NCBI RefSeq assembly: GCF_054482595.1 | Contig: NZ_CM137008.1 | Strand: one strand, 5' to 3' | DNA: 64,000 nucleotides | Part shown: piece after piece, positions 7,850 through 54,922 of the stretch | How the letters are laid out: the number at the start of each line of letters is the position of its first letter | Numbering within the stretch: position 1 is the stretch's first letter | The notes under the pieces: model-generated | What the model was told of the DNA's origin: nothing | Databases searched by the model: none | What the model saw: only the letters and a program-made list of their open reading frames with translations | Made by a program: the position numbers and the translations under genes

Positions 7850-7940
7850 GTAAAAAAACCGACTTTGCGTCGGTTTTTTACTTTCCAGCCCTGAGTTGGT
7901 GGCTCTGGCTGGAGTGAGAATGCCCACATCTAACGGTTCA
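7850..7940 (-). ncRNA. agrA: AgrA/AgrB-family antisense small RNA, arsR-proximal copy (less complementary to the dinQ leader)
   Basis: ~90 nt repeat unit with core ctgagttggtggctctggctggagtgag; ends on the minus strand in hairpin ccgac-N-gtcgg plus U-run (7853-7880). Assignment of agrA versus agrB between the two copies is uncertain. Confidence 0.45.
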
Positions 7941-8081
7941 ATACTATTAGCCAGTGGCTAACATTGCAAGCGTTAGCGATTTCTTCAGCTGGCGGAGGGG
8001 GCACTTCGGTATATATCGCAGTGACGATTTATATACTTTCACTGGGTCATCGTCATATTAAGCCTTGTCCGAATCCGGACG

Positions 8082-8172
8082 TAAAAAAACCGACTTCGCG
8101 TCGGTTTTTTTACTGTTCAGCCCTGAGTTGGTGGCTCTGGCTGGAGTGAGATAGCCATCATCTAACGCATCA
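8082..8172 (-). ncRNA. agrB: AgrA/AgrB-family antisense small RNA, dinQ-proximal copy (more complementary to the dinQ 5' leader)
   Basis: Second repeat copy ~232 bp from the first; its complement pairs with dinQ leader 8334-8365 (ctggccggagtgagatagtcgtcatctaac) with about 3 mismatches; same hairpin plus U-run terminator (8088-8112). Confidence 0.45.
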
Positions 8173-19847: not shown

Positions 19848-20163
19848 GCTATTTTTCCTAAAGATGAAAATTATTAGAGTCGCATTAAAAATGAGCTAAT
19901 TTTGATAGTGGCTATCTTGTGATTATTTTCTAATGAGCCCGTGAACTGAACCCCCCATGCTTAATATAAGGTGGAGGGAAAGGTGATTGAAAACTCACCC
20001 AGTGGGCTGATCTTTATAAAATATGAACAGGTTGAAAAAAAACAGTAACTTTGCTGTTTTTTATACTTAACCACTATGCATTAATGCTGCGTTATTTCAT
20101 TCTACCTAAGAAAAACCAGCGTTACGCAAATGGTCAACGCTGGTTTTATCCGGTACGTTGCAA

Positions 20164-21216
20164 TTATTTTTTAGCAGAACCCGCTTCTAATATTGAAACG
20201 ATTGAGAACAACGTAAAGCATACCGCTCCCAAACCGACCAGAACCCGCGAAGGAATAAAATATCCCATATCGGTCTGCGCCATTTCCGCAAGAAACGATG
20301 CCAGGAAAAGGCAAAACAGGCAGGTGAAGACGGGAATCATCGGTATTCTGTTGGCTAACGAACAGGTACGTCTCCAGACCAGTGCCAGTAGCCAGACTTT
20401 TGAGAATATGCTGTAACAGATCATTCCCAAGCAAATGAGGATAATACCGGGAGCCAGTCGGGCGCTTGCATCAGAACTGACTAAGACGTATATGCCCTGC
20501 AGCACCGTGATTGAGCCGAGAAAAATAACCCAATAACACCACAGCCAGTGCTCTTTCGTTGAAAACGTATTACGTGTTTGATGGACGATTGTGGCAACAA
20601 GGCCAATTAGACTGGCACAGATTGCGGTTAACCCGAGCAATACGTGACCGGCGACATAATGCGGAGTTATGTCGGCACTACGTAACAGCGTAATAGACCA
20701 AATGAAACCGAGCAGGGTGAGTAACACGGGAACGGCAATGAGGCAATTACCGATTAATGAAGAATAAGCCTGTACCGGTGTTCCGTCGCTCTTGCTCCCC
20801 GCTGCGTTTTTAGGAATGAGCAGAAAGTGACCGGATGACGCTGCCACCGTCGATACACAGGCGGCAATCATACCAACGCCGAAAATAACATGGCCGGCGA
20901 CAAACTCGTCTGCCATCACATCATTACCTGCTAACAGTGCCCAACCCCATATCATGGTGATAATTGACCCCGCATAGCCAATAATGGGGAACAATGTATT
21001 GTAAAACGTATTAACGCCGCGCGTGAGCTGCGAAATGATAATAAATGCGGTAGTGAATAATGCCAGGCATATGGCTGCCAGAGAAATGAGCACATGACCC
21101 GCGACGAAATACTCGCTTTGCCCTGAACTTTCCAGCACAAAGCCACCTAACGCGATACAAATCAAGCCCATAATTAAAGGGATTAATTTGAAAAGCCACC
21201 CGATATATATGTTCAC
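20164..21216 (-). CDS. yhiM: Inner membrane protein YhiM
   Basis: 350 aa from a GTG start (VNIYIGWLFKL…) preceded by GAGGAG; repeated VAGHVL motifs in transmembrane segments; the longer ORF-track start was rejected. Confidence 0.85.
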   Translation of the reverse strand: MNIYIGWLFKLIPLIMGLICIALGGFVLESSGQSEYFVAGHVLISLAAICLALFTTAFIIISQLTRGVNTFYNTLFPIIGYAGSIITMIWGWALLAGNDVMADEFVAGHVIFGVGMIAACVSTVAASSGHFLLIPKNAAGSKSDGTPVQAYSSLIGNCLIAVPVLLTLLGFIWSITLLRSADITPHYVAGHVLLGLTAICASLIGLVATIVHQTRNTFSTKEHWLWCYWVIFLGSITVLQGIYVLVSSDASARLAPGIILICLGMICYSIFSKVWLLALVWRRTCSLANRIPMIPVFTCLFCLFLASFLAEMAQTDMGYFIPSRVLVGLGAVCFTLFSIVSILEAGSAKK

Positions 21217-21514
21217 TTTAAACTCCTCAGGTATCCCTGCTAATATTGAAATGTGCATTAATGATAATTTCAGCCTGTTAATACAATGACGAGATATCAT
21301 TAAAGACAAATGCATAGCATAACTATAGCGGGGTTTACTTTGCAGAGCGCTACTTTTCAGAGTTCAAAAGGCCATGATAAATAAATATTTATCCTAAGAT
21401 TAATTCTTATTCTGTTATTTTTTACAATTATCTTCCAGGGAGGGATTCTTTTTCATTATTTGGTAAAAGACCGGATGGTCTCGGTGCTTAAAATCAGCGA
21501 GCATATACGCATTA

Positions 21515-42376: not shown

Positions 42377-42964
42377 TCAGTTAACTGAATCGATCCATTG
42401 CACACTGTCGGCGGTGAGCGTAAAGGGGGTGGGGGTGCAGATCGCAAGGCTTAAATTTTCTAGCTGACAATGGCTGACTGACAGCGAGGAGTGATAGGTG
42501 CTATCTACGCTGACGATTTGCCAGGCGCTGCCGCCACGCTGTTTAACGATGGCTTCTTTGCGCGTCCAGATGCGCCAGAACATTTCCAGTTGCTGATCAG
42601 GATGCACGGCGTCCATCTCAGCGTGTTCCCCGAGGCTGAATACGGCGTTCGCCAGCCAGCGCCAGTTGGCGCGCGGGCGAATCACTTCGATATCGCAGCC
42701 GACTTCGCCTTCATCACTCAACAGCAGAGCGATATCGTCACCGCTATGGCTTAAGTTGAACCATAGCGGCGTTTCCGGCGCGAATGCAGGTTTGCCTTGT
42801 TCGCCATAGATGATCTCCGGTAGCGGGGAAAGCGTGTGCGAAAGCAATGCACGCCCCGCCAGCCAGCGTTCGCGTCGTGGACCTTGCGGTGCTTGCTCGC
42901 GTAAACCCGGTGGCAGTGGAGCTGCGCTTAAGGTCGAAACTTTCCCCAGAACTATCCGATACAT
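42377..42964 (-). CDS. acpT: 4'-phosphopantetheinyl transferase AcpT
   Basis: 195 aa from MYRIVLGKVSTLSAAPLPPG; the ATG lies 2 nt downstream of the stop of the preceding ketosynthase gene on the same strand; the longer ORF-track start was rejected. Confidence 0.88.
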   Translation of the reverse strand: MYRIVLGKVSTLSAAPLPPGLREQAPQGPRRERWLAGRALLSHTLSPLPEIIYGEQGKPAFAPETPLWFNLSHSGDDIALLLSDEGEVGCDIEVIRPRANWRWLANAVFSLGEHAEMDAVHPDQQLEMFWRIWTRKEAIVKQRGGSAWQIVSVDSTYHSSLSVSHCQLENLSLAICTPTPFTLTADSVQWIDSVN

Positions 42965-47139: not shown

Positions 47140-49454
47140 TTTTTTGTTCTCTTTTTATCGGGCATCGCCAGCGGCGAAAGCAGGAAGGCGGTGAAAATAC
47201 CGCTCACCAGCACAATGCCAAAACTGCTGATGGCCTGGGTGGCGCTGAATACCAGCATTCCCAGCGTCAGCAAGGTGGTGAGCATTGCCAGCGTGATCGC
47301 CAGTAGCGAAGTTAATGGTGTACCGCGCGGATTACTGAAAAACAGCGTGTAGTTGATGCCGATGCCAAGCACCAGCACCAGCGCCAGCAGCGAAAAGAGA
47401 TTCACCGCCTGCCCGCTCATCGCCAGCACCGCCAGACCACAACCCAGCGAAAGCACCGAAGGTACAAGGCTGATAAGCCCTTTGCGCCAGCCGAGACGGG
47501 CCACTGCGCCGCAGGCAATCACCGCCAGCGCCACCAGCAACAAGCCGGTTAAGACATAACGGTAAAGCGCGAACAACTCATCAAAGGTGCTTTTGCGATC
47601 AACCCAGGCAATGCCGCAAGGGTAATATGTGGCGATTTCCTGCATCAACGCGCTACTTTTAACCCCTTCAACCGGCACCAGTACGCCGCTTTCGCCGTTT
47701 TCCAGCGTCAGCCACAGCAGACGCCAGCCTTCACTGGCGGGGCTTGCCAGCCATTCATCAACGTTCACTGGCATGGCGTTGAGATCCGGGTTCACTGCCG
47801 TCAGCCCGGCATTTTGCAGCGCTTTTGTTACTGTCGGGGCCGCCGTTTTCAGCAGTTGTAAATCTTCCTCCTGCCGCGCAAGGGAGTTCAGCGGAATGGT
47901 GCGGTAGTTGCTGATAAGCCCCTCTTTTTTCGCATACTCAAGTGAGGCGGTATATTTCTCCAGTCGCCGCAATGTTTGCTGTGGCGAATCGCCGTAAACC
48001 ACAAACCATTTTTGATCGACGCTTTGTCCGGTCAGGGCGGTAATGGCTTTCTCCTGGGTCAGAATATGCTGCGGCAGCGCCTGTAACTGCGAGATATCGT
48101 CATCGACGCGCAGCATTGACATCCCCGCCAGCGAAAACAGCGCCAGCGCGACGGGCAGACCCAGCGACAGTTTTTTATTGCGCCGCCACGCTGCCAGCCA
48201 GCGCAGCATCAGCGCCATCGCCGGAACCGGACGCACCGGCAGGCCACGGCACAGCCACGGATGCCAGAACAGGACGGTCAGACAGGAGGCGCTCAACCCG
48301 ACGGCGGCAAAAATCGCCATCTGGCGAATGCCGGGGAAGGGGGCGAGCATCATAATCAGATATGCCGCCACGGTGGTGAGCAGCGCCAGCAGCAGGGCAT
48401 TGCGTACTTTCGCCAGGCTTTGCCACGGCGAAACGTCGTTGCCGTGCACCATCCGCTCGGTGAGATAATAGAGCGTGTAGTCAGCGGAAATGCCGATAAC
48501 GCTCATGCTCATCACCAGCGTCATCAGGTGTAATTCACCGAAAATCAATAAAGTGGCGACCGTTCCCGCCAGCGCGCCGATGCCGATGGAAATCACGCAA
48601 AGCAGCAACGGGCGCAAAGAGCGGAACACCGCCACAATCAGCAATATCACCCCCAGCAGCGTTGCCACGCCCAGGGTTGAGATATCCTGCTTCGCCTGTT
48701 GGCTGGCGTAATCGCTGTAAAACACCGTGCCGCGCGAAAGCAGCTGCGCCTGCGGGTAACGCGTTTTCAGATCCTTTTCCAGCGTATTCAGGGTCGTGAT
48801 GAGCTGGTGGGTTTGCTGCATATCAAACGACGATCCCGCCAGTTCACCGTGCAGCAGATACCAGTAGTTGCCCTGGGGATCCTGCGTCACCAGCCAGCCG
48901 TCCATCAGCCGCAAACGCTGGCCGTTTTTCGCCATCGCCAGCTGCGAGCCGCGCATTAACATCAGCGGATCGTTTTGCAGCTCCTTGCCGCTTACCCCGG
49001 AGAACGCAGAATAAAGCTGGGAGAGGATCCACTGCGCCTGCGCTTCGCCGCCGTTTTGCAGGCGCGCGCGGGTGTCGGGGTCAATCAGGCCGTTGCGGTG
49101 CTGCCAGAAAAACGCTCCCCACGCTTGCTGGCTGGCGGCATCCATTGGCCCTTTAACGTCGCCGAGCGCAGCGGATTTTTGCAGCAGCGTCAGCCACTCC
49201 TGAGCGACCCTGGGATTAGCCTCTTTACCGGGGCTGACCAGCCACACCAGTTGGCGGTCCAGACGCTGCATAAAGCCGTCATTCAGCGCTGGGGGAATAT
49301 CGCCCATAGCCTGTTTGGGTAACATAGCCAGCACGCTACTGTTCAGCCGTGATTGCGGCAGCAGGATCAGCAACGCCGCCGCCATGACCAGGCAGACTAG
49401 CCCCCATAACAGCGCGGGGCGTTTACTGGGCGGCAAAACGTTGGCGTTCGTCAT
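47136..49454 (-). CDS. apeM: MMPL/RND-superfamily exporter
   Basis: 772 aa; two transmembrane bundles each followed by a large soluble domain; translationally overlaps its neighbours. Confidence 0.7.
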   Translation of the reverse strand: MTNANVLPPSKRPALLWGLVCLVMAAALLILLPQSRLNSSVLAMLPKQAMGDIPPALNDGFMQRLDRQLVWLVSPGKEANPRVAQEWLTLLQKSAALGDVKGPMDAASQQAWGAFFWQHRNGLIDPDTRARLQNGGEAQAQWILSQLYSAFSGVSGKELQNDPLMLMRGSQLAMAKNGQRLRLMDGWLVTQDPQGNYWYLLHGELAGSSFDMQQTHQLITTLNTLEKDLKTRYPQAQLLSRGTVFYSDYASQQAKQDISTLGVATLLGVILLIVAVFRSLRPLLLCVISIGIGALAGTVATLLIFGELHLMTLVMSMSVIGISADYTLYYLTERMVHGNDVSPWQSLAKVRNALLLALLTTVAAYLIMMLAPFPGIRQMAIFAAVGLSASCLTVLFWHPWLCRGLPVRPVPAMALMLRWLAAWRRNKKLSLGLPVALALFSLAGMSMLRVDDDISQLQALPQHILTQEKAITALTGQSVDQKWFVVYGDSPQQTLRRLEKYTASLEYAKKEGLISNYRTIPLNSLARQEEDLQLLKTAAPTVTKALQNAGLTAVNPDLNAMPVNVDEWLASPASEGWRLLWLTLENGESGVLVPVEGVKSSALMQEIATYYPCGIAWVDRKSTFDELFALYRYVLTGLLLVALAVIACGAVARLGWRKGLISLVPSVLSLGCGLAVLAMSGQAVNLFSLLALVLVLGIGINYTLFFSNPRGTPLTSLLAITLAMLTTLLTLGMLVFSATQAISSFGIVLVSGIFTAFLLSPLAMPDKKRTKK

Positions 49455-50450: not shown

Positions 50451-52127
50451 TTACTCCTTGTCCTGAATTTCCGGCAGTTGCCAGAAATCGAAAAAATTAA
50501 ACCAGTCGAGGGGCGACTGGAGCGCGTAATGTTCCAGACGCGCGGCGTAGTGGTCGATAGCGTTTTGCAGCGCCTGCTGGCGTTCGCCACGCGGCAGTTG
50601 CAGCGGGTCGGCAAAGCTTTCGCAGTGAATATGCAGCTTGCCGTGCTGGCGTAGGGCGAAAATCAGATTCACTGGGCAGCGCAAAATAGAGGCGAGAATA
50701 AACGGCCCCTGTGGGAAGGGCGCAGGCTGGCCCATAAACGGACTCCAGCAGACGCGCCAGTCGCCGCCGCGTTGCGGGGTGACGGCGATGCGGTCACCGA
50801 CAATCGCCACCCATTCGCCGTTATCCAGCTTCTCTTTCAGCAGGATGGCGGTTTCTGGGCCGATATCTGTTACCGGCATCAGGTTAATGCCTGCCTGAGG
50901 AGCCATCTCCTGCATTATCTGTTTAAAGCGTTGGGCGTTTTCGCTAAACACCAGCGCGTTAATGGTTTTGTAGCCCTGAATTTTTGCCAGCGCCCGGCAC
51001 ACTTCCACATCGCCAAGATGCGAGGCCAGCAGCAATTTGCCGCGCGGATCGCGGACGTCAAGCGCCGCTTCTGCGCCTGGCGCAAACAGCACATCACGCC
51101 CCAGTTGTAGCTCGCCGCGCCAGCTGGCGATTTTGTCGAGCATGGCATTACCGAAACGTAGAAAGTGCTGATAGCTGTTGAGTTTTGCCGCCTGTGGTTG
51201 ATGCTGTCGTACACGGGCGAGCCAGTCTTGCGACGCTTTGCGCGCACGAGAAGCAGTGAGCCAGTAGACGCCCACCACCGGGTAAAGCAGCGCGCTAAAC
51301 GCCGTTCTTCCCAGCAGACGCCAGACCAGCAGCATCAGGCGCATTCCCCATAATCCTTTCACTTCACTCTGCCGCGCCCAGTGGCTGGAAGAGCGGCGCA
51401 TCAGCAGTGAAGGAATACGCGGTAACATGCCGAAAAATAGACGCGTGTGCATGAGCGAGATGCGGACGTTATCTTTCAGGGCATCAAAATGCGAAAGCCC
51501 GTCCAGTGGATAGGTGACGCGGGTCGGCACGAAATAGCTGGTGTTTCCCTGCCAGTAGAGGCGCACCATCACTTCAGTGTCGAAATCCATCCGCTTGCCG
51601 ATGGTGGCGTGTTTTGCCAGTTGCAGCGTTGGCGCAACCGGATAAACGCGAAAGCCGCACATGCTGTCTTTCAGTTGCAGGGAGAGCGTTTCGATCCATA
51701 CCCAGACGTGGGTGACCCAGCGCCCGTAAAGCCGTGAGCGGGGGATGGAGTCATCGTAAATTGGCTGGCCGGAGATCAGCGCCGCAGGGTGTTGTTCAGC
51801 GACTGCCAGCAGTTTGGGGATATCTTCAATCGCATGTTGACCGTCAGCATCCACCTGCACTGCATGGCTGAACCCTGCGTCTGCCGCTGCCTGTAAGCCA
51901 CGCATCACTGCCGCGCCTTTACCTGCGTTTTCTGCTAAGCGAATTAAGGTCACGCCAGGCTGTTCGCTAACCAGATTATCCAGTTGCTGTTGCGTGGCGG
52001 CATCGCTGCCGTCGTCCACCACAATACAGGGGAGATTAAATGGCTTAAGACGCGCCAGCACGCCCGGCATCATCGCGCCGTGGTTATAGCAGGGGATCAA
52101 CACGCAGGGAGAAAAGTTTACCGACAT
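50451..52127 (-). CDS. apeJ: Bifunctional family-2 glycosyltransferase / LpxL-like acyltransferase
   Basis: 558 aa; N-terminal GT2 (CVLIPCYNHG…VVDDGSDA), C-terminal lipid A acyltransferase-like domain. Confidence 0.7.
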   Translation of the reverse strand: MSVNFSPCVLIPCYNHGAMMPGVLARLKPFNLPCIVVDDGSDAATQQQLDNLVSEQPGVTLIRLAENAGKGAAVMRGLQAAADAGFSHAVQVDADGQHAIEDIPKLLAVAEQHPAALISGQPIYDDSIPRSRLYGRWVTHVWVWIETLSLQLKDSMCGFRVYPVAPTLQLAKHATIGKRMDFDTEVMVRLYWQGNTSYFVPTRVTYPLDGLSHFDALKDNVRISLMHTRLFFGMLPRIPSLLMRRSSSHWARQSEVKGLWGMRLMLLVWRLLGRTAFSALLYPVVGVYWLTASRARKASQDWLARVRQHQPQAAKLNSYQHFLRFGNAMLDKIASWRGELQLGRDVLFAPGAEAALDVRDPRGKLLLASHLGDVEVCRALAKIQGYKTINALVFSENAQRFKQIMQEMAPQAGINLMPVTDIGPETAILLKEKLDNGEWVAIVGDRIAVTPQRGGDWRVCWSPFMGQPAPFPQGPFILASILRCPVNLIFALRQHGKLHIHCESFADPLQLPRGERQQALQNAIDHYAARLEHYALQSPLDWFNFFDFWQLPEIQDKE

Positions 52128-52501
52128 AGGCGGATCTTCCCGCTACTGGCGGTGTGGCGGGCGTCACCGTCGTGACGCTGATAGCTAAAGCTCAGAATCT
52201 GGCGTTCTTCCTGCCAGTTAAGCGCGAGCGTGACGCGGTTTTCCGGCAGCAACGGAGACTGGAATTTTATGTTCTGAATGGAGTGAAAACGCCAGCCAGG
52301 CGCGAGCAGATTGAGCGCGTAGCTCATCGCCCAGTCGATTTGCGCAACTCCTGGGAGTAATGGTTGCACGGCAAAATGACCGCGAAACCAGAACAGATCC
52401 GCCCTGAGATGCAGAACAATTTCAAGGTGATTCGTTTGTGCCTGATGGCGCTCGATTTCATGGGGCTTCATGAAATAACTCCTGTAATTGCGCATAGACA
52501 C
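52118..52501 (-). CDS. apeI: Hotdog-fold dehydratase (FabA/FabZ-like)
   Basis: 127 aa hotdog-fold protein; second dehydratase-like gene in the cluster. Confidence 0.6.
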   Translation of the reverse strand: MSMRNYRSYFMKPHEIERHQAQTNHLEIVLHLRADLFWFRGHFAVQPLLPGVAQIDWAMSYALNLLAPGWRFHSIQNIKFQSPLLPENRVTLALNWQEERQILSFSYQRHDGDARHTASSGKIRLCR

Positions 52502-53858
52502 GCTTGTTCATACTGTTTACTGGCATTTCATCAATAACGCGCCAGTAACGCGGAATAGCAACTGGCTCCAGCGTCGGGCGCAGTAAACGCCGCCAGGTCA
52601 TTTCCTGGCTATGCCCGCCGCCGTTCTGCCATTGCAGATGAGCTTCGTCATCCAGCACCAGCAAAACGCCTATGCTCTGACGCCCGCCGCGCGTAACGGG
52701 AACTGCCGCCGCCTCGCGAATGCCGTCCAGCGCCAGTAGACGTTGTTCTACTTCCTGGAGTGAAATACGTTTTTCTTCAATCTTAACGATGCGCCCACGA
52801 CGCCCCATCAGATGGAACTGACCATCTTCGCTAAGCTGTAAGATATCGTCGAGTAACAGGCCGTTATCTTCCGCTATCAGCGGTGAAAAGAGGCGAAAGG
52901 CATCGCCTTCGGCTTGGAACTGCATACCTGGGAGGGGTAGCCAGCGGCGTTGCTCTTGTTCGCGGTAACGCCAGGCGATGACGCCGGTTTCCGTGCTGCC
53001 GTAGATTTCATCAGGCCAGACGCGCAGCCAGCTTGCGGTGTGTTGTACATCCTGCCACGGCAGCTCACCGCCAGCAGAGAGAAGCACCTGAACGGGTGGC
53101 GGAGAAAGCTGGGTATCCAGGCGCTTCAAAAATGCCGGGCTGCTGATGAAGATATAGCGATGCTGATGACTCAACGCGGCAAACTGTTCGACATACCAGA
53201 GCATGGCGGCGTGCAGCGGTAATCCCAACGCCATGGGCAGGAAAACACGAAAAGTCAGGCCGTACAAATGCTGCGGCAATACGGAACCGACGACACGACA
53301 ACCCGCCAGACGTGCGCCTAATCGTTCAGCCAGCAGTTCTGCTTCACGATCCAGCAAATGAACAGGTTTAATCACCCGTTTCGGCTGTCCCGTGGAACCG
53401 GAGGTAAACAGCTCGATAAAAGCCTCTGGCGCTATAGCGGCAAAGGTGAAGGATTGTGTCGCGACTTGTGGGGAACTTGCTACCAACAGCCATGAACCTT
53501 GCCAGTTAAGTTCGCTGTCGCTAAGCACACCATCGAACAGTTCACGTTGCTCGTTAAGCTGGATGACACGGTTATGCCCCGGAAGCACCGGTGTTTTTCC
53601 GGCGTGTAGCGTGGCGAGCAGGGCAACGATAAACAGATAGCTGTTCTCAAAGCACAGCGCCCAGCGTTCACCCGGCTGTTGCTGCAAGCGGCAGATAAGT
53701 TGCGCGACATCGTGACGCAAATCGCCCAGCGTCCAGGTGCTTTCGTCCAGCCACGCAATGGGCGTGTCATCAGGGCGTGGCGCAGTCAGCCAGCGTGCAA
53801 GCGGTAAGGTCTGCTTCATGCGCGATCTCTTTTCATCACCTGACGGCGCACCAGCCAT
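52458..53858 (-). CDS. apeH: AMP-dependent synthetase/ligase (adenylating enzyme; putative aryl starter activation)
   Basis: 466 aa; AMP-binding motif FTSGSTGQPK; ORF-track start overlaps neighbours by ~43 nt, so the true start may be downstream. Confidence 0.7.
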   Translation of the reverse strand: MAGAPSGDEKRSRMKQTLPLARWLTAPRPDDTPIAWLDESTWTLGDLRHDVAQLICRLQQQPGERWALCFENSYLFIVALLATLHAGKTPVLPGHNRVIQLNEQRELFDGVLSDSELNWQGSWLLVASSPQVATQSFTFAAIAPEAFIELFTSGSTGQPKRVIKPVHLLDREAELLAERLGARLAGCRVVGSVLPQHLYGLTFRVFLPMALGLPLHAAMLWYVEQFAALSHQHRYIFISSPAFLKRLDTQLSPPPVQVLLSAGGELPWQDVQHTASWLRVWPDEIYGSTETGVIAWRYREQEQRRWLPLPGMQFQAEGDAFRLFSPLIAEDNGLLLDDILQLSEDGQFHLMGRRGRIVKIEEKRISLQEVEQRLLALDGIREAAAVPVTRGGRQSIGVLLVLDDEAHLQWQNGGGHSQEMTWRRLLRPTLEPVAIPRYWRVIDEMPVNSMNKRVYAQLQELFHEAP

Positions 53859-54397
53859 TCACCAGCCATTAATGTTCCCATCAACAAATAAGCAATCATG
53901 CCGTTCCAGGCGGTCCATAACGACATATCGGCATAAAGCGCGGTAAAGAGGGCAATTCCACCGTTAATGATGAAAAAGCCGCACCAGATTTGCGTGACGT
54001 GGCGGGTATAGCGCACGCCCTTTTCCGGGAGGTCTGGCTCCTGCAACCGCGCCAGCCGCTCAACTATCGGCATTGCCGACCACAGCGAACCGCCAAAAAC
54101 CGCCAGCATGACCGCGTTAACCACTACCGGGTAAAACAGCAGTAGCTGGTGCGTTTTCAACATAAAGCTGGCGACACATAATGCGATGCCCACGACAGCG
54201 ACGAGTTGCGTGACGGCTTGTAAAGGCCCCGCCTGGCGACGGGTCTGGCGCAGACGCAACAAAAGCAGCAACGCCATTAGCGGTAACAGCCAGTGCAGGC
54301 CGTTATGCGCTAAGCCAAACCAAATCACAAACGGCCAGGCGAGCAGCAATAATCCAGTCAGCAGCTTAATCATCGGTAGCGAGCGAATGCCCGACAT
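53816..54397 (-). CDS. apeG: Integral membrane protein of the aryl polyene-type cluster
   Basis: 193 aa with several transmembrane segments. Confidence 0.55.
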   Translation of the reverse strand: MSGIRSLPMIKLLTGLLLLAWPFVIWFGLAHNGLHWLLPLMALLLLLRLRQTRRQAGPLQAVTQLVAVVGIALCVASFMLKTHQLLLFYPVVVNAVMLAVFGGSLWSAMPIVERLARLQEPDLPEKGVRYTRHVTQIWCGFFIINGGIALFTALYADMSLWTAWNGMIAYLLMGTLMAGEWLVRRQVMKRDRA

Positions 54398-54664: not shown

Positions 54665-54922
54665 TCAGGCACGTTGCGCAGCAATGAAAGAGGCCAGAGT
54701 GGCGACGGAGAAAAAGTGCTGACGCATCTCTTCGCTTTCCGCAGAGAGCACGATGCCGTACTCATTTTTTACTGCCAGTCCCAGTTCCAGGGCATCGATA
54801 GAGTCCAGCCCTAAACCGTCGCCAAACAGCGGCGCGTCGGTATCGATATCATCAGGCGTCAACTCGTCCAGATTGAGGGTGCTGATGATGAGGTTTTTAA
54901 TTTCCAGATAAAGCGCTTGCAT
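54665..54922 (-). CDS. apeE: Acyl carrier protein
   Basis: 85 aa; motif LGLDSIDALE. Confidence 0.8.
   Translation of the reverse strand: MQALYLEIKNLIISTLNLDELTPDDIDTDAPLFGDGLGLDSIDALELGLAVKNEYGIVLSAESEEMRQHFFSVATLASFIAAQRA

Follow-up and report, generated by a model that had tools for sequence, protein, structure and literature searches.

Start Codons and Gene Overlaps around the Ligase Gene apeH in an Aryl-Polyene Operon of Escherichia coli

Do neighboring genes of a biosynthetic operon share more than forty nucleotides at each junction, or do such overlaps come from the way in which their starts are called? The question is raised by an aryl-polyene (APE) operon on the minus strand of an Escherichia coli chromosome, found within a stretch of 64,000 nt (NCBI RefSeq assembly GCF_054482595.1, contig NZ_CM137008.1; referred to here as the window). 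When open reading frames (ORFs) are begun at their first ATG, the gene for an AMP-binding ligase, apeH, appears to overlap both the upstream membrane-protein gene, apeG, and the downstream dehydratase gene, apeI, by about 43 nt. The original prediction, made from the sequence of the window alone, allowed for either internal starts or unusually long translational overlaps. The first of these is borne out, as the supported starts are the downstream codons ATG 53819 (apeH) and ATG 52471 (apeI), while no support was found for long overlaps; the real ones are 4 and 14 nt, and are very probably packed in this way for translational coupling. The genes concerned are as follows.

53816..54397, minus strand: apeG, COG4648-family membrane protein, 193 aa, with the stop codon TGA at 53818..53816 (from the ORF list)
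52458..53819, minus strand: apeH, AMP-binding acyl-ACP (acyl carrier protein) synthetase, 453 aa, N-terminus MKQTLPLARW
52118..52471, minus strand: apeI, ApeI-family hot-dog dehydratase, 117 aa, N-terminus MKPHEIERHQ

The ligase ORF taken from its first ATG (53858..52458, minus strand) overlaps the membrane-protein gene (54397..53816) by exactly 43 nt, as predicted. At the downstream end the predicted figure is only approximate: the dehydratase ORF, which ends at 52118, overlaps the ligase (stop at 52458) by 44 nt from its most upstream start, GTG 52501, and by 38 nt from its first ATG, 52495. An in-frame upstream ATG without an intervening stop was found for 11 of the 61 RefSeq-annotated coding sequences (CDS) of the window, and in nine of these the extension is at least 30 nt; the count rises to 21 of the 61 when GTG and TTG are included. 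The pattern of upstream starts around the ligase is no more than chance gives. Annotated same-strand overlaps in the window are mostly of 1 nt (four cases) or 4 nt (ten cases), with one each of 8, 10, 11, 14, 26 and 32 nt. There is little doubt that the 43- and 44-nt overlaps are an artefact of extending each ORF to its first possible start, and a caution attaches to this, in that first-ATG or longest-ORF calling over-extends about one in six of the window genes and so produces apparent long overlaps. The real overlaps of 4, 14 and 10 nt (the last between apeI and apeJ) were already annotated in RefSeq, overlapping ORFs of the operon have been noted in the literature (see later), and the understanding of overlapping genes is unchanged by the present result.

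Starts assigned by the Prokaryotic Genome Annotation Pipeline (PGAP) and RefSeq were inspected in seven E. coli records, including the 81%-identical B2-type NC101. A set of 79 loci from other species was obtained from a scan of one genome per species, and junction sizes were scored in 44 Enterobacterales orthologues. Ligase lengths were taken from the 120 best homologues, and N-termini are described from those that were read. Long protein forms (a 466-aa ligase and a 125-aa dehydratase starting at ATG 52495) were looked up in a public collection that holds about 15 billion proteins.

The apeG/apeH junction

53816..53819, minus strand: ATGA junction, at which the apeH ATG (53819..53817) overlaps the apeG TGA (53818..53816) by 4 nt
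53820..53858, minus strand: spurious ligase extension of 13 codons, MAGAPSGDEKRSR, in the +1 frame of the apeG 3' end

The PGAP start of apeH is ATG 53819 in all seven E. coli records, NC101 among them. Start and stop codon share bases at this position, and the arrangement is conserved in orthologues: the apeG to apeH junction is 4 nt in 28 and 8 nt in five of the 44 Enterobacterales, and among the 79 loci an apeH start that shares 4 or 8 nt with the end of apeG is seen repeatedly, from Enterobacterales to Burkholderiales, with ATGA/GTGA-type junctions seen in Burkholderiales too. The encoded protein belongs to the ANL adenylate-forming enzymes, with FTSGSTGQPK, which contains the phosphate-binding motif TSGSTG, and NSMNKR, with the C-terminal Lys typical of these enzymes, invariant in the alignment, and it matches Pfam PF00501 (AMP-binding) with 54.1 bits (cut-off 29.9). 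Nearly all of the 120 homologues are 449–455 aa long and lack the 13-residue extension. Their N-termini have the form MK/MN-x-x-L-x-L and begin at the position of Met14 of the long ORF, an outcome of the ortholog comparison suggested with the original prediction that agrees with an internal start. The exact 453-aa ligase was found on 787 public contigs; the protein collection does not contain the 466-aa form. Against NCBIfam, all ligase matches were below threshold and none lay near the N-terminus; nothing was recovered for ApeG or for a 127-aa form of the dehydratase.

The alternative is that the long overlaps are real, with apeH translated from ATG 53858, apeI from GTG 52501 or ATG 52495, and about 40 nt of dual-coding sequence at each junction. 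Both the window and many Enterobacteriaceae do have these frames open and provided with start codons, and a ligase of 465–466 aa is present in a few database gene calls (for example P0031 and P0049–P0056), one group of which has valine at the canonical position, presumably reflecting a GTG start. However, the ligase extension is broken by in-frame TAA or TGA codons in E. coli NC101, Citrobacter amalonaticus, C. gillenii, Lelliottia, Leclercia and Enterobacter, so that it is closed in at least seven lineages (NC101 and loci L008, L014, L017, L028, L029 and L051), including another lineage of E. coli itself, and the alternative is already largely refuted by these stops. In NC101 the TAA is located between the upstream ATG and the ATGA, and the extension is therefore untranslatable there. 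In C. amalonaticus (L008) a G→T change, by which Met188 of ApeG becomes Ile, creates the TAA. The upstream ATG 53858 can be understood as a by-product of the apeG codons GAA-TGG (Glu-Trp). Since the ATGA junction sets the frame of the ligase, any A-TGG in apeG yields an in-frame ATG, and across the 79 loci a ligase start 43 nt upstream is found only where the Glu-Trp of apeG is encoded by GA(A/G)-TGG.

Conservation of the overlap region as protein in both frames, the outcome that would have spoken for a long overlap, was not found. Over the 39-nt extension, the entropy at apeG codon positions 1, 2 and 3 is 0.66, 0.54 and 1.03, respectively, in 22 in-register sequences (pooling with sequences carrying C-terminal indels gave a blurred result, and the in-register group was used instead). 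Variability peaks at the third codon position of apeG, which is the first position of the ligase frame. Amino-acid identity to the window over the same 39 nt is 63% in the apeG frame versus 42% in the ligase frame; over the first 13 codons past the canonical apeH ATG it is 61%. Substitutions track the apeG frame only, its C-terminal motif GEWLVRRQVMKR is kept as protein among orthologues, and, judged from these alignments, selection across the ligase extension acts on the apeG frame only. Together with the stops described above, this leaves the ligase-frame extension without conservation as protein.

The sole match resembling a Shine-Dalgarno (SD) sequence at ATG 53858 lies 1 nt from the ATG. 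The SD at ATG 53819 is itself weak (-2.9 kcal/mol, 6-nt spacer), which would fit termination-reinitiation, in that a ribosome finishing apeG would most likely re-initiate on the spot at the ATGA. In bacterial operons, ATGA-type 4-nt overlaps and short overlaps containing an SD couple the translation of adjacent genes, as at junctions of the trp operon. The window has the same arrangement, with a start that overlaps the upstream stop and a downstream SD inside the upstream CDS, and nothing about it is unusual by comparison; coupling of the same kind probably operates here.

Some further features of apeG were observed. A near-tandem direct repeat, ATGGCTGGTG-a-ATGGCTGGTG, is located at its 3' end (53848-53869, minus strand) and encodes MAGEWLV; the second ATGGCTGGTG copy supplies the spurious ligase ATG 53858, and the repeat is absent from the NC101 allele. 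The gene is labelled 'hypothetical protein / COG4648 family protein' in RefSeq. At its annotated start, ATG 54397, there is practically no SD (-0.8 kcal/mol); this ATG lies 4 nt past the stop of the ACP gene, and a second in-frame ATG occurs eight codons on, at 54373. In 20 of the 44 orthologues the apeG start is 4–6 nt past the ACP stop (17 of the 44 were not scorable). Proteins of 193 aa from the COG4648 family (ApeG) are also found among the members of the 90%-identity cluster that contains the 453-aa ligase, presumably a clustering artefact bridged by a read-through or fused sequence.

The apeH/apeI junction

52458..52471, minus strand: apeH/apeI overlap, a genuine 14 nt, with apeH reading ..F H E A P stop and apeI M K P H ..
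52479..52483, minus strand: AGGAG Shine-Dalgarno sequence for apeI, within apeH codons Gln446-Glu447 and 7 nt upstream of ATG 52471
52472..52501, minus strand: spurious dehydratase extension of 10 codons, V/M-SMRNYRSYF, from GTG 52501 or ATG 52495
52118..52127, minus strand: apeI/apeJ overlap of 10 nt, with the start of apeJ (glycosyltransferase family 2) at ATG 52127 (PGAP)

All seven E. coli records have ATG 52471 as the PGAP start of apeI. Scoring of SD sites and starts, which had been proposed as a check, separates the starts at this junction: at ATG 52471 the anti-SD duplex reaches -6.9 kcal/mol (spacer 6 nt; -7 is attained by some 2% of the 20-mers of the cluster), compared with +0.1 and -0.1 kcal/mol at GTG 52501 and ATG 52495, that is, no SD. 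The CAG and GAG codons of apeH that contain the site are kept in 25/25 and 24/25 orthologues, and orthologues with as little as 40% ligase identity still have cAGGAG, gAGGAG or cAGGAA. A 14-nt junction carrying (c/g)AGGA(g/a) is present in 38 of the 44 Enterobacterales orthologues and a 4-nt junction in three; the following junction, apeI to apeJ, is 10 nt in 32 and 7 nt in eight. The start of apeI is thus served by a strong AGGAG that lies within the final codons of apeH, and a ribosome on the apeH tail would keep the apeI initiation site open.

The short apeI product matches Pfam PF22818 (ApeI-like) with 136.4 bits (cut-off 28.5, E=7e-40), protein residues 1-117 aligning to profile positions 1-119 of 119, and from this end-to-end match it follows that the profile begins at the short start. 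A solved structure agrees with it: residue 1 of PDB 6qsr_A (119 aa, MKPIEI...) falls on the methionine of the short form, and the alignment (E=1e-38) runs along the whole of the 117 aa, with MKPIEI opposite MKPHEI. The depositors named the molecule in the file 'AMP-dependent synthetase and ligase'; it is probably the ApeI of Xenorhabdus. The exact 117-aa dehydratase is found on at least 1000 public contigs, and the 125-aa form from ATG 52495 is absent from the protein collection.

At this junction, the case for a real long overlap draws on the high nucleotide conservation upstream of the apeI start. Against it, a TGA closes the dehydratase-frame extension in Lelliottia (L017) and in Enterobacter cloacae (L051), and in the Pantoea/Pectobacterium/Yersinia/Hafnia group the upstream frame has no consistently placed start codon. 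The upstream apeI starts are by-products of the apeH codons CGT GTC TAT GCG (Arg-Val-Tyr-Ala) and lack a usable SD, both the family profile and the solved structure start at the short form, and neither of the long forms queried occurs in the protein collection. Of the marks of a dual-coding overlap of at least 30 nt, namely a conserved start with an open frame, protein constraint in two frames (judged at the apeG/apeH junction) and a ribosome-binding site, none was found, and long overlaps at these junctions are almost certainly not real.

The nucleotide conservation deserves attention in its own right. Over some 80 nt ahead of the apeI start there is hardly any variation between the E. coli alleles, which are otherwise about 81% identical, or in Citrobacter. 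Synonymous conservation, measured as codon identity at positions with an unchanged amino acid, peaks in apeH over its final 10 codons (0.81, where the mean of the gene is 0.43; rank 1/442), and the first 10 codons of apeI rank 2/108. Such a peak fits what is expected from true dual coding over 14 nt combined with an embedded SD and its spacer. Farther upstream, apeH codons 439-445 have a score of 0.71, in the top ~3% of windows, a level that is equalled by codons 55-59, an internal ligase segment without any overlap; no extra coding layer is therefore needed for codons 439-445. Dual coding was also considered as an explanation for the constraint 5' of the apeI SD, and was rejected on the grounds of this equal conservation and of the stops in the frame in Lelliottia and Enterobacter.

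A weaker form of the long-overlap proposal is dual initiation, in which the short starts are the main ones and minor upstream initiation in E. coli and its close relatives gives extended isoforms of ApeH and/or ApeI, functional or not. In its favor, the window does have the upstream starts, in open frames, and the synonymous constraint on apeH codons 439-445 coincides with the extended apeI frame. These starts nevertheless have no SD and are unconserved beyond close relatives, ribosomes translating apeG and apeH would run through and occlude the upstream sites, and codons 55-59 show the same synonymous conservation where nothing overlaps. Dual initiation is, accordingly, very improbable, if slightly less so than long overlaps proper.

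A third explanation concerns RNA structure, and involves the following element.

52455..52476, minus strand: candidate hairpin (speculative), ATTTCATG-(AAGCCC)-CATGAAAT, in which the apeI start would base-pair with the region of the apeH stop

According to this explanation a conserved hairpin (52476-52455) accounts for the conservation of the junction, and would sequester the apeI AUG until a ribosome reaches the apeH stop, thereby enforcing coupling. The perfect 8-bp inverted repeat ATTTCATG/CATGAAAT spans the apeI start and the apeH stop and lies within the minimum-free-energy fold (110-nt context), and 82% of alignment cells are pairable versus 28-58% in slid registers. On the other hand, there are 0 compensatory pairs and the hairpin does no better than column shuffles, RNAalifold gave no consensus structure for 18 junction sequences, and the predicted unpaired probability at the apeI AUG is 0.6. 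The protein sequences account for the inverted repeat, as F-H-E and H-E-I both use CATGAA, which encodes His-Glu in each protein. A role for the hairpin seems unlikely on balance.

The reading preferred here, that of short starts with short overlaps packed for coupling, has points against it. Its support is all comparative or computational; the apeH start has only the weak SD described above, and the argument for its use is drawn from conservation and an assumed re-initiation. Synonymous conservation reaches about 20 nt upstream of the apeI SD, for which the SD alone is an insufficient explanation. Finally, the upstream frames are open with ATG or GTG in E. coli, Citrobacter and several other Enterobacteriaceae, where minor initiation is possible. 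The position and conservation of the starts and SD sites, and the lack of conservation of the extensions, are direct observations, and it is the coupling mechanism itself that is inferred from them.

Gene fusions and the ApeG, ApeH and ApeI proteins

In the APE cluster of E. coli CFT073 (apeA-apeR), ApeG is the COG4648 membrane protein, ApeH a 4-hydroxybenzoate-activating acyl-ACP synthetase and ApeI a dehydratase (PMC8253772). The cluster was described as having 'several overlapping open reading frames' and as probably polycistronic (PMC8253772, Johnston et al. 2021), and its nomenclature was taken over, according to that study, from the Xenorhabdus cluster described by Grammbitter et al. Production of the aryl-polyene pigment has been shown experimentally for the CFT073 cluster (PMC8253772), which has the same gene content and order as that of the window. 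In Acinetobacter baumannii, ApeI forms the C-terminal part of a fusion with ApeH and has ApeP as its partner (PMC8041823, Sci Rep 2021), a difference from E. coli, where the two are separate polypeptides. The frames of apeH and apeI differ by one base, and read-through therefore cannot fuse the E. coli proteins.

Fusions were also found among the loci collected here. A single ORF joining ApeH and ApeI (AMP-binding plus ApeI-like) is present in 16 loci, mostly of Paraburkholderia, Caballeronia and Trinickia, and nine loci in all have ApeG, ApeH and ApeI in one ORF, of 769 aa in Fibrobacter and of similar size in Treponema.

L056:2848-4602 (Paraburkholderia): ApeH-ApeI fusion; also in L058, L059, L061, L066, L068, L069 and L071
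L073, L074, L076-L078, L080, L082 and L085: further ApeH-ApeI fusions; the whole set of 16 is from Burkholderiales and some other lineages
L060:2332-4641 (Fibrobacter metagenome-assembled genome): ApeG-ApeH-ApeI fusion of ~770 aa; also in L062, L063, L065, L075, L079, L081, L084 and L086

ApeG has been proposed to energise export (PMC8253772; bioRxiv 10.1101/2020.12.19.423268). In the ApeG fusion, by contrast, it is physically joined to the starter-unit ligase and the dehydratase, and both kinds of fusion are consistent with the short overlaps serving an equimolar, coupled synthesis of ApeG, ApeH and ApeI. Taken together, the short conserved couplings and the fusions suggest, tentatively, that the three proteins form one equimolar, membrane-anchored module for starter-unit loading and dehydration, in which case the unusually strong synonymous constraint on the last part of apeH, perhaps together with the hairpin, could be a cis element setting stoichiometry; this is a possibility worth stating, though the odds are against it. 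If true, ApeG would move from the role of an energy supplier for export to the initiation complex. The lead of wider use is the fusions themselves, which tie an uncharacterised membrane protein, ApeG, to the ligase/dehydratase pair.

The operon, its alleles and its surroundings

The APE gene set extends across 43.0-57.6 kb of the window, as judged from the ORFs and RefSeq products, in the following RefSeq order.

First part, minus strand: methyltransferase, chain-length factor, lysophospholipid acyltransferase (LPLAT), two ACPs, COG4648 membrane protein
Middle, minus strand: AMP-binding protein, FabZ/ApeI-family dehydratase, family-2 glycosyltransferase (GT2), thioesterase, LolA-like protein, MMPL protein
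Last part, minus strand: DUF3261 protein, ketosynthase (KS), dehydratase (DH), FabG, KS

By gene content this is an APE cluster, with a co-linear set of genes of type-II-PKS/FAS-like character, namely KS, chain-length factor, ketoreductase, two DH and two ACPs, accompanied by an adenylating enzyme, by the accessory methyltransferase, LPLAT, GT2 and thioesterase genes and by LolA/MMPL/DUF3261 export genes, and the list agrees with Table 1 of PMC8253772. The 2.5-kb region examined has a match of 100% identity in E. coli strain XH990; among 5426 complete genomes of the species, 824 carry the region. The window has the non-B2 allele of the cluster, with a nucleotide identity of ~99% to O157:H7 EDL933 and only ~81% to the B2 type (NC101, Nissle); the cluster of CFT073 is probably of the B2 type and would differ in this respect. 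The junction architecture is the same in the window allele and the B2-type allele.

Scans around the junctions for promoter consensus (10 hits against a shuffle expectation of 6.6±2.4) and terminator consensus (14 against 8.9±2.9) gave counts not clearly above expectation, and an Rfam scan of the window found no match inside the cluster; no internal transcription signal is proposed around the junctions.

The longest RefSeq-annotated overlaps of the operon lie elsewhere, at 54897-54922 and 49423-49454 (minus strand). The former, between the LPLAT gene (apeD) and the first ACP gene, is 26 nt, a length seen in two of the 44 orthologues, with 20 nt in 17. The latter, of 32 nt in the window annotation, joins the LolA-like and MMPL genes. 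Some strains have irregular versions of the region: the ligase of strain C325 (L006) is annotated as a pseudogene with an internal stop, the entire region in strain HH45 (L003) is annotated as frameshifted, possibly because of assembly quality, and the match in O157:H7 strain Z1835 (hit H31) covers only 57% of the query.

Directly downstream of the cluster is acpT (4'-phosphopantetheinyl transferase; 42377-42964, minus strand), which adjoins the nik operon; AcpT reportedly modifies both carrier proteins of the O157:H7 island. The only Rfam matches in the window are two copies of the AgrB antisense RNA beside dinQ, at 7.8-8.2 kb (7850-8165, minus strand), as in RefSeq. Also as in RefSeq, a low-GC stretch (0.34-0.41) at 20000-25100 contains yhiM and two DUF4049 paralogues, and a HicAB toxin-antitoxin pair is found at 30455-31086.

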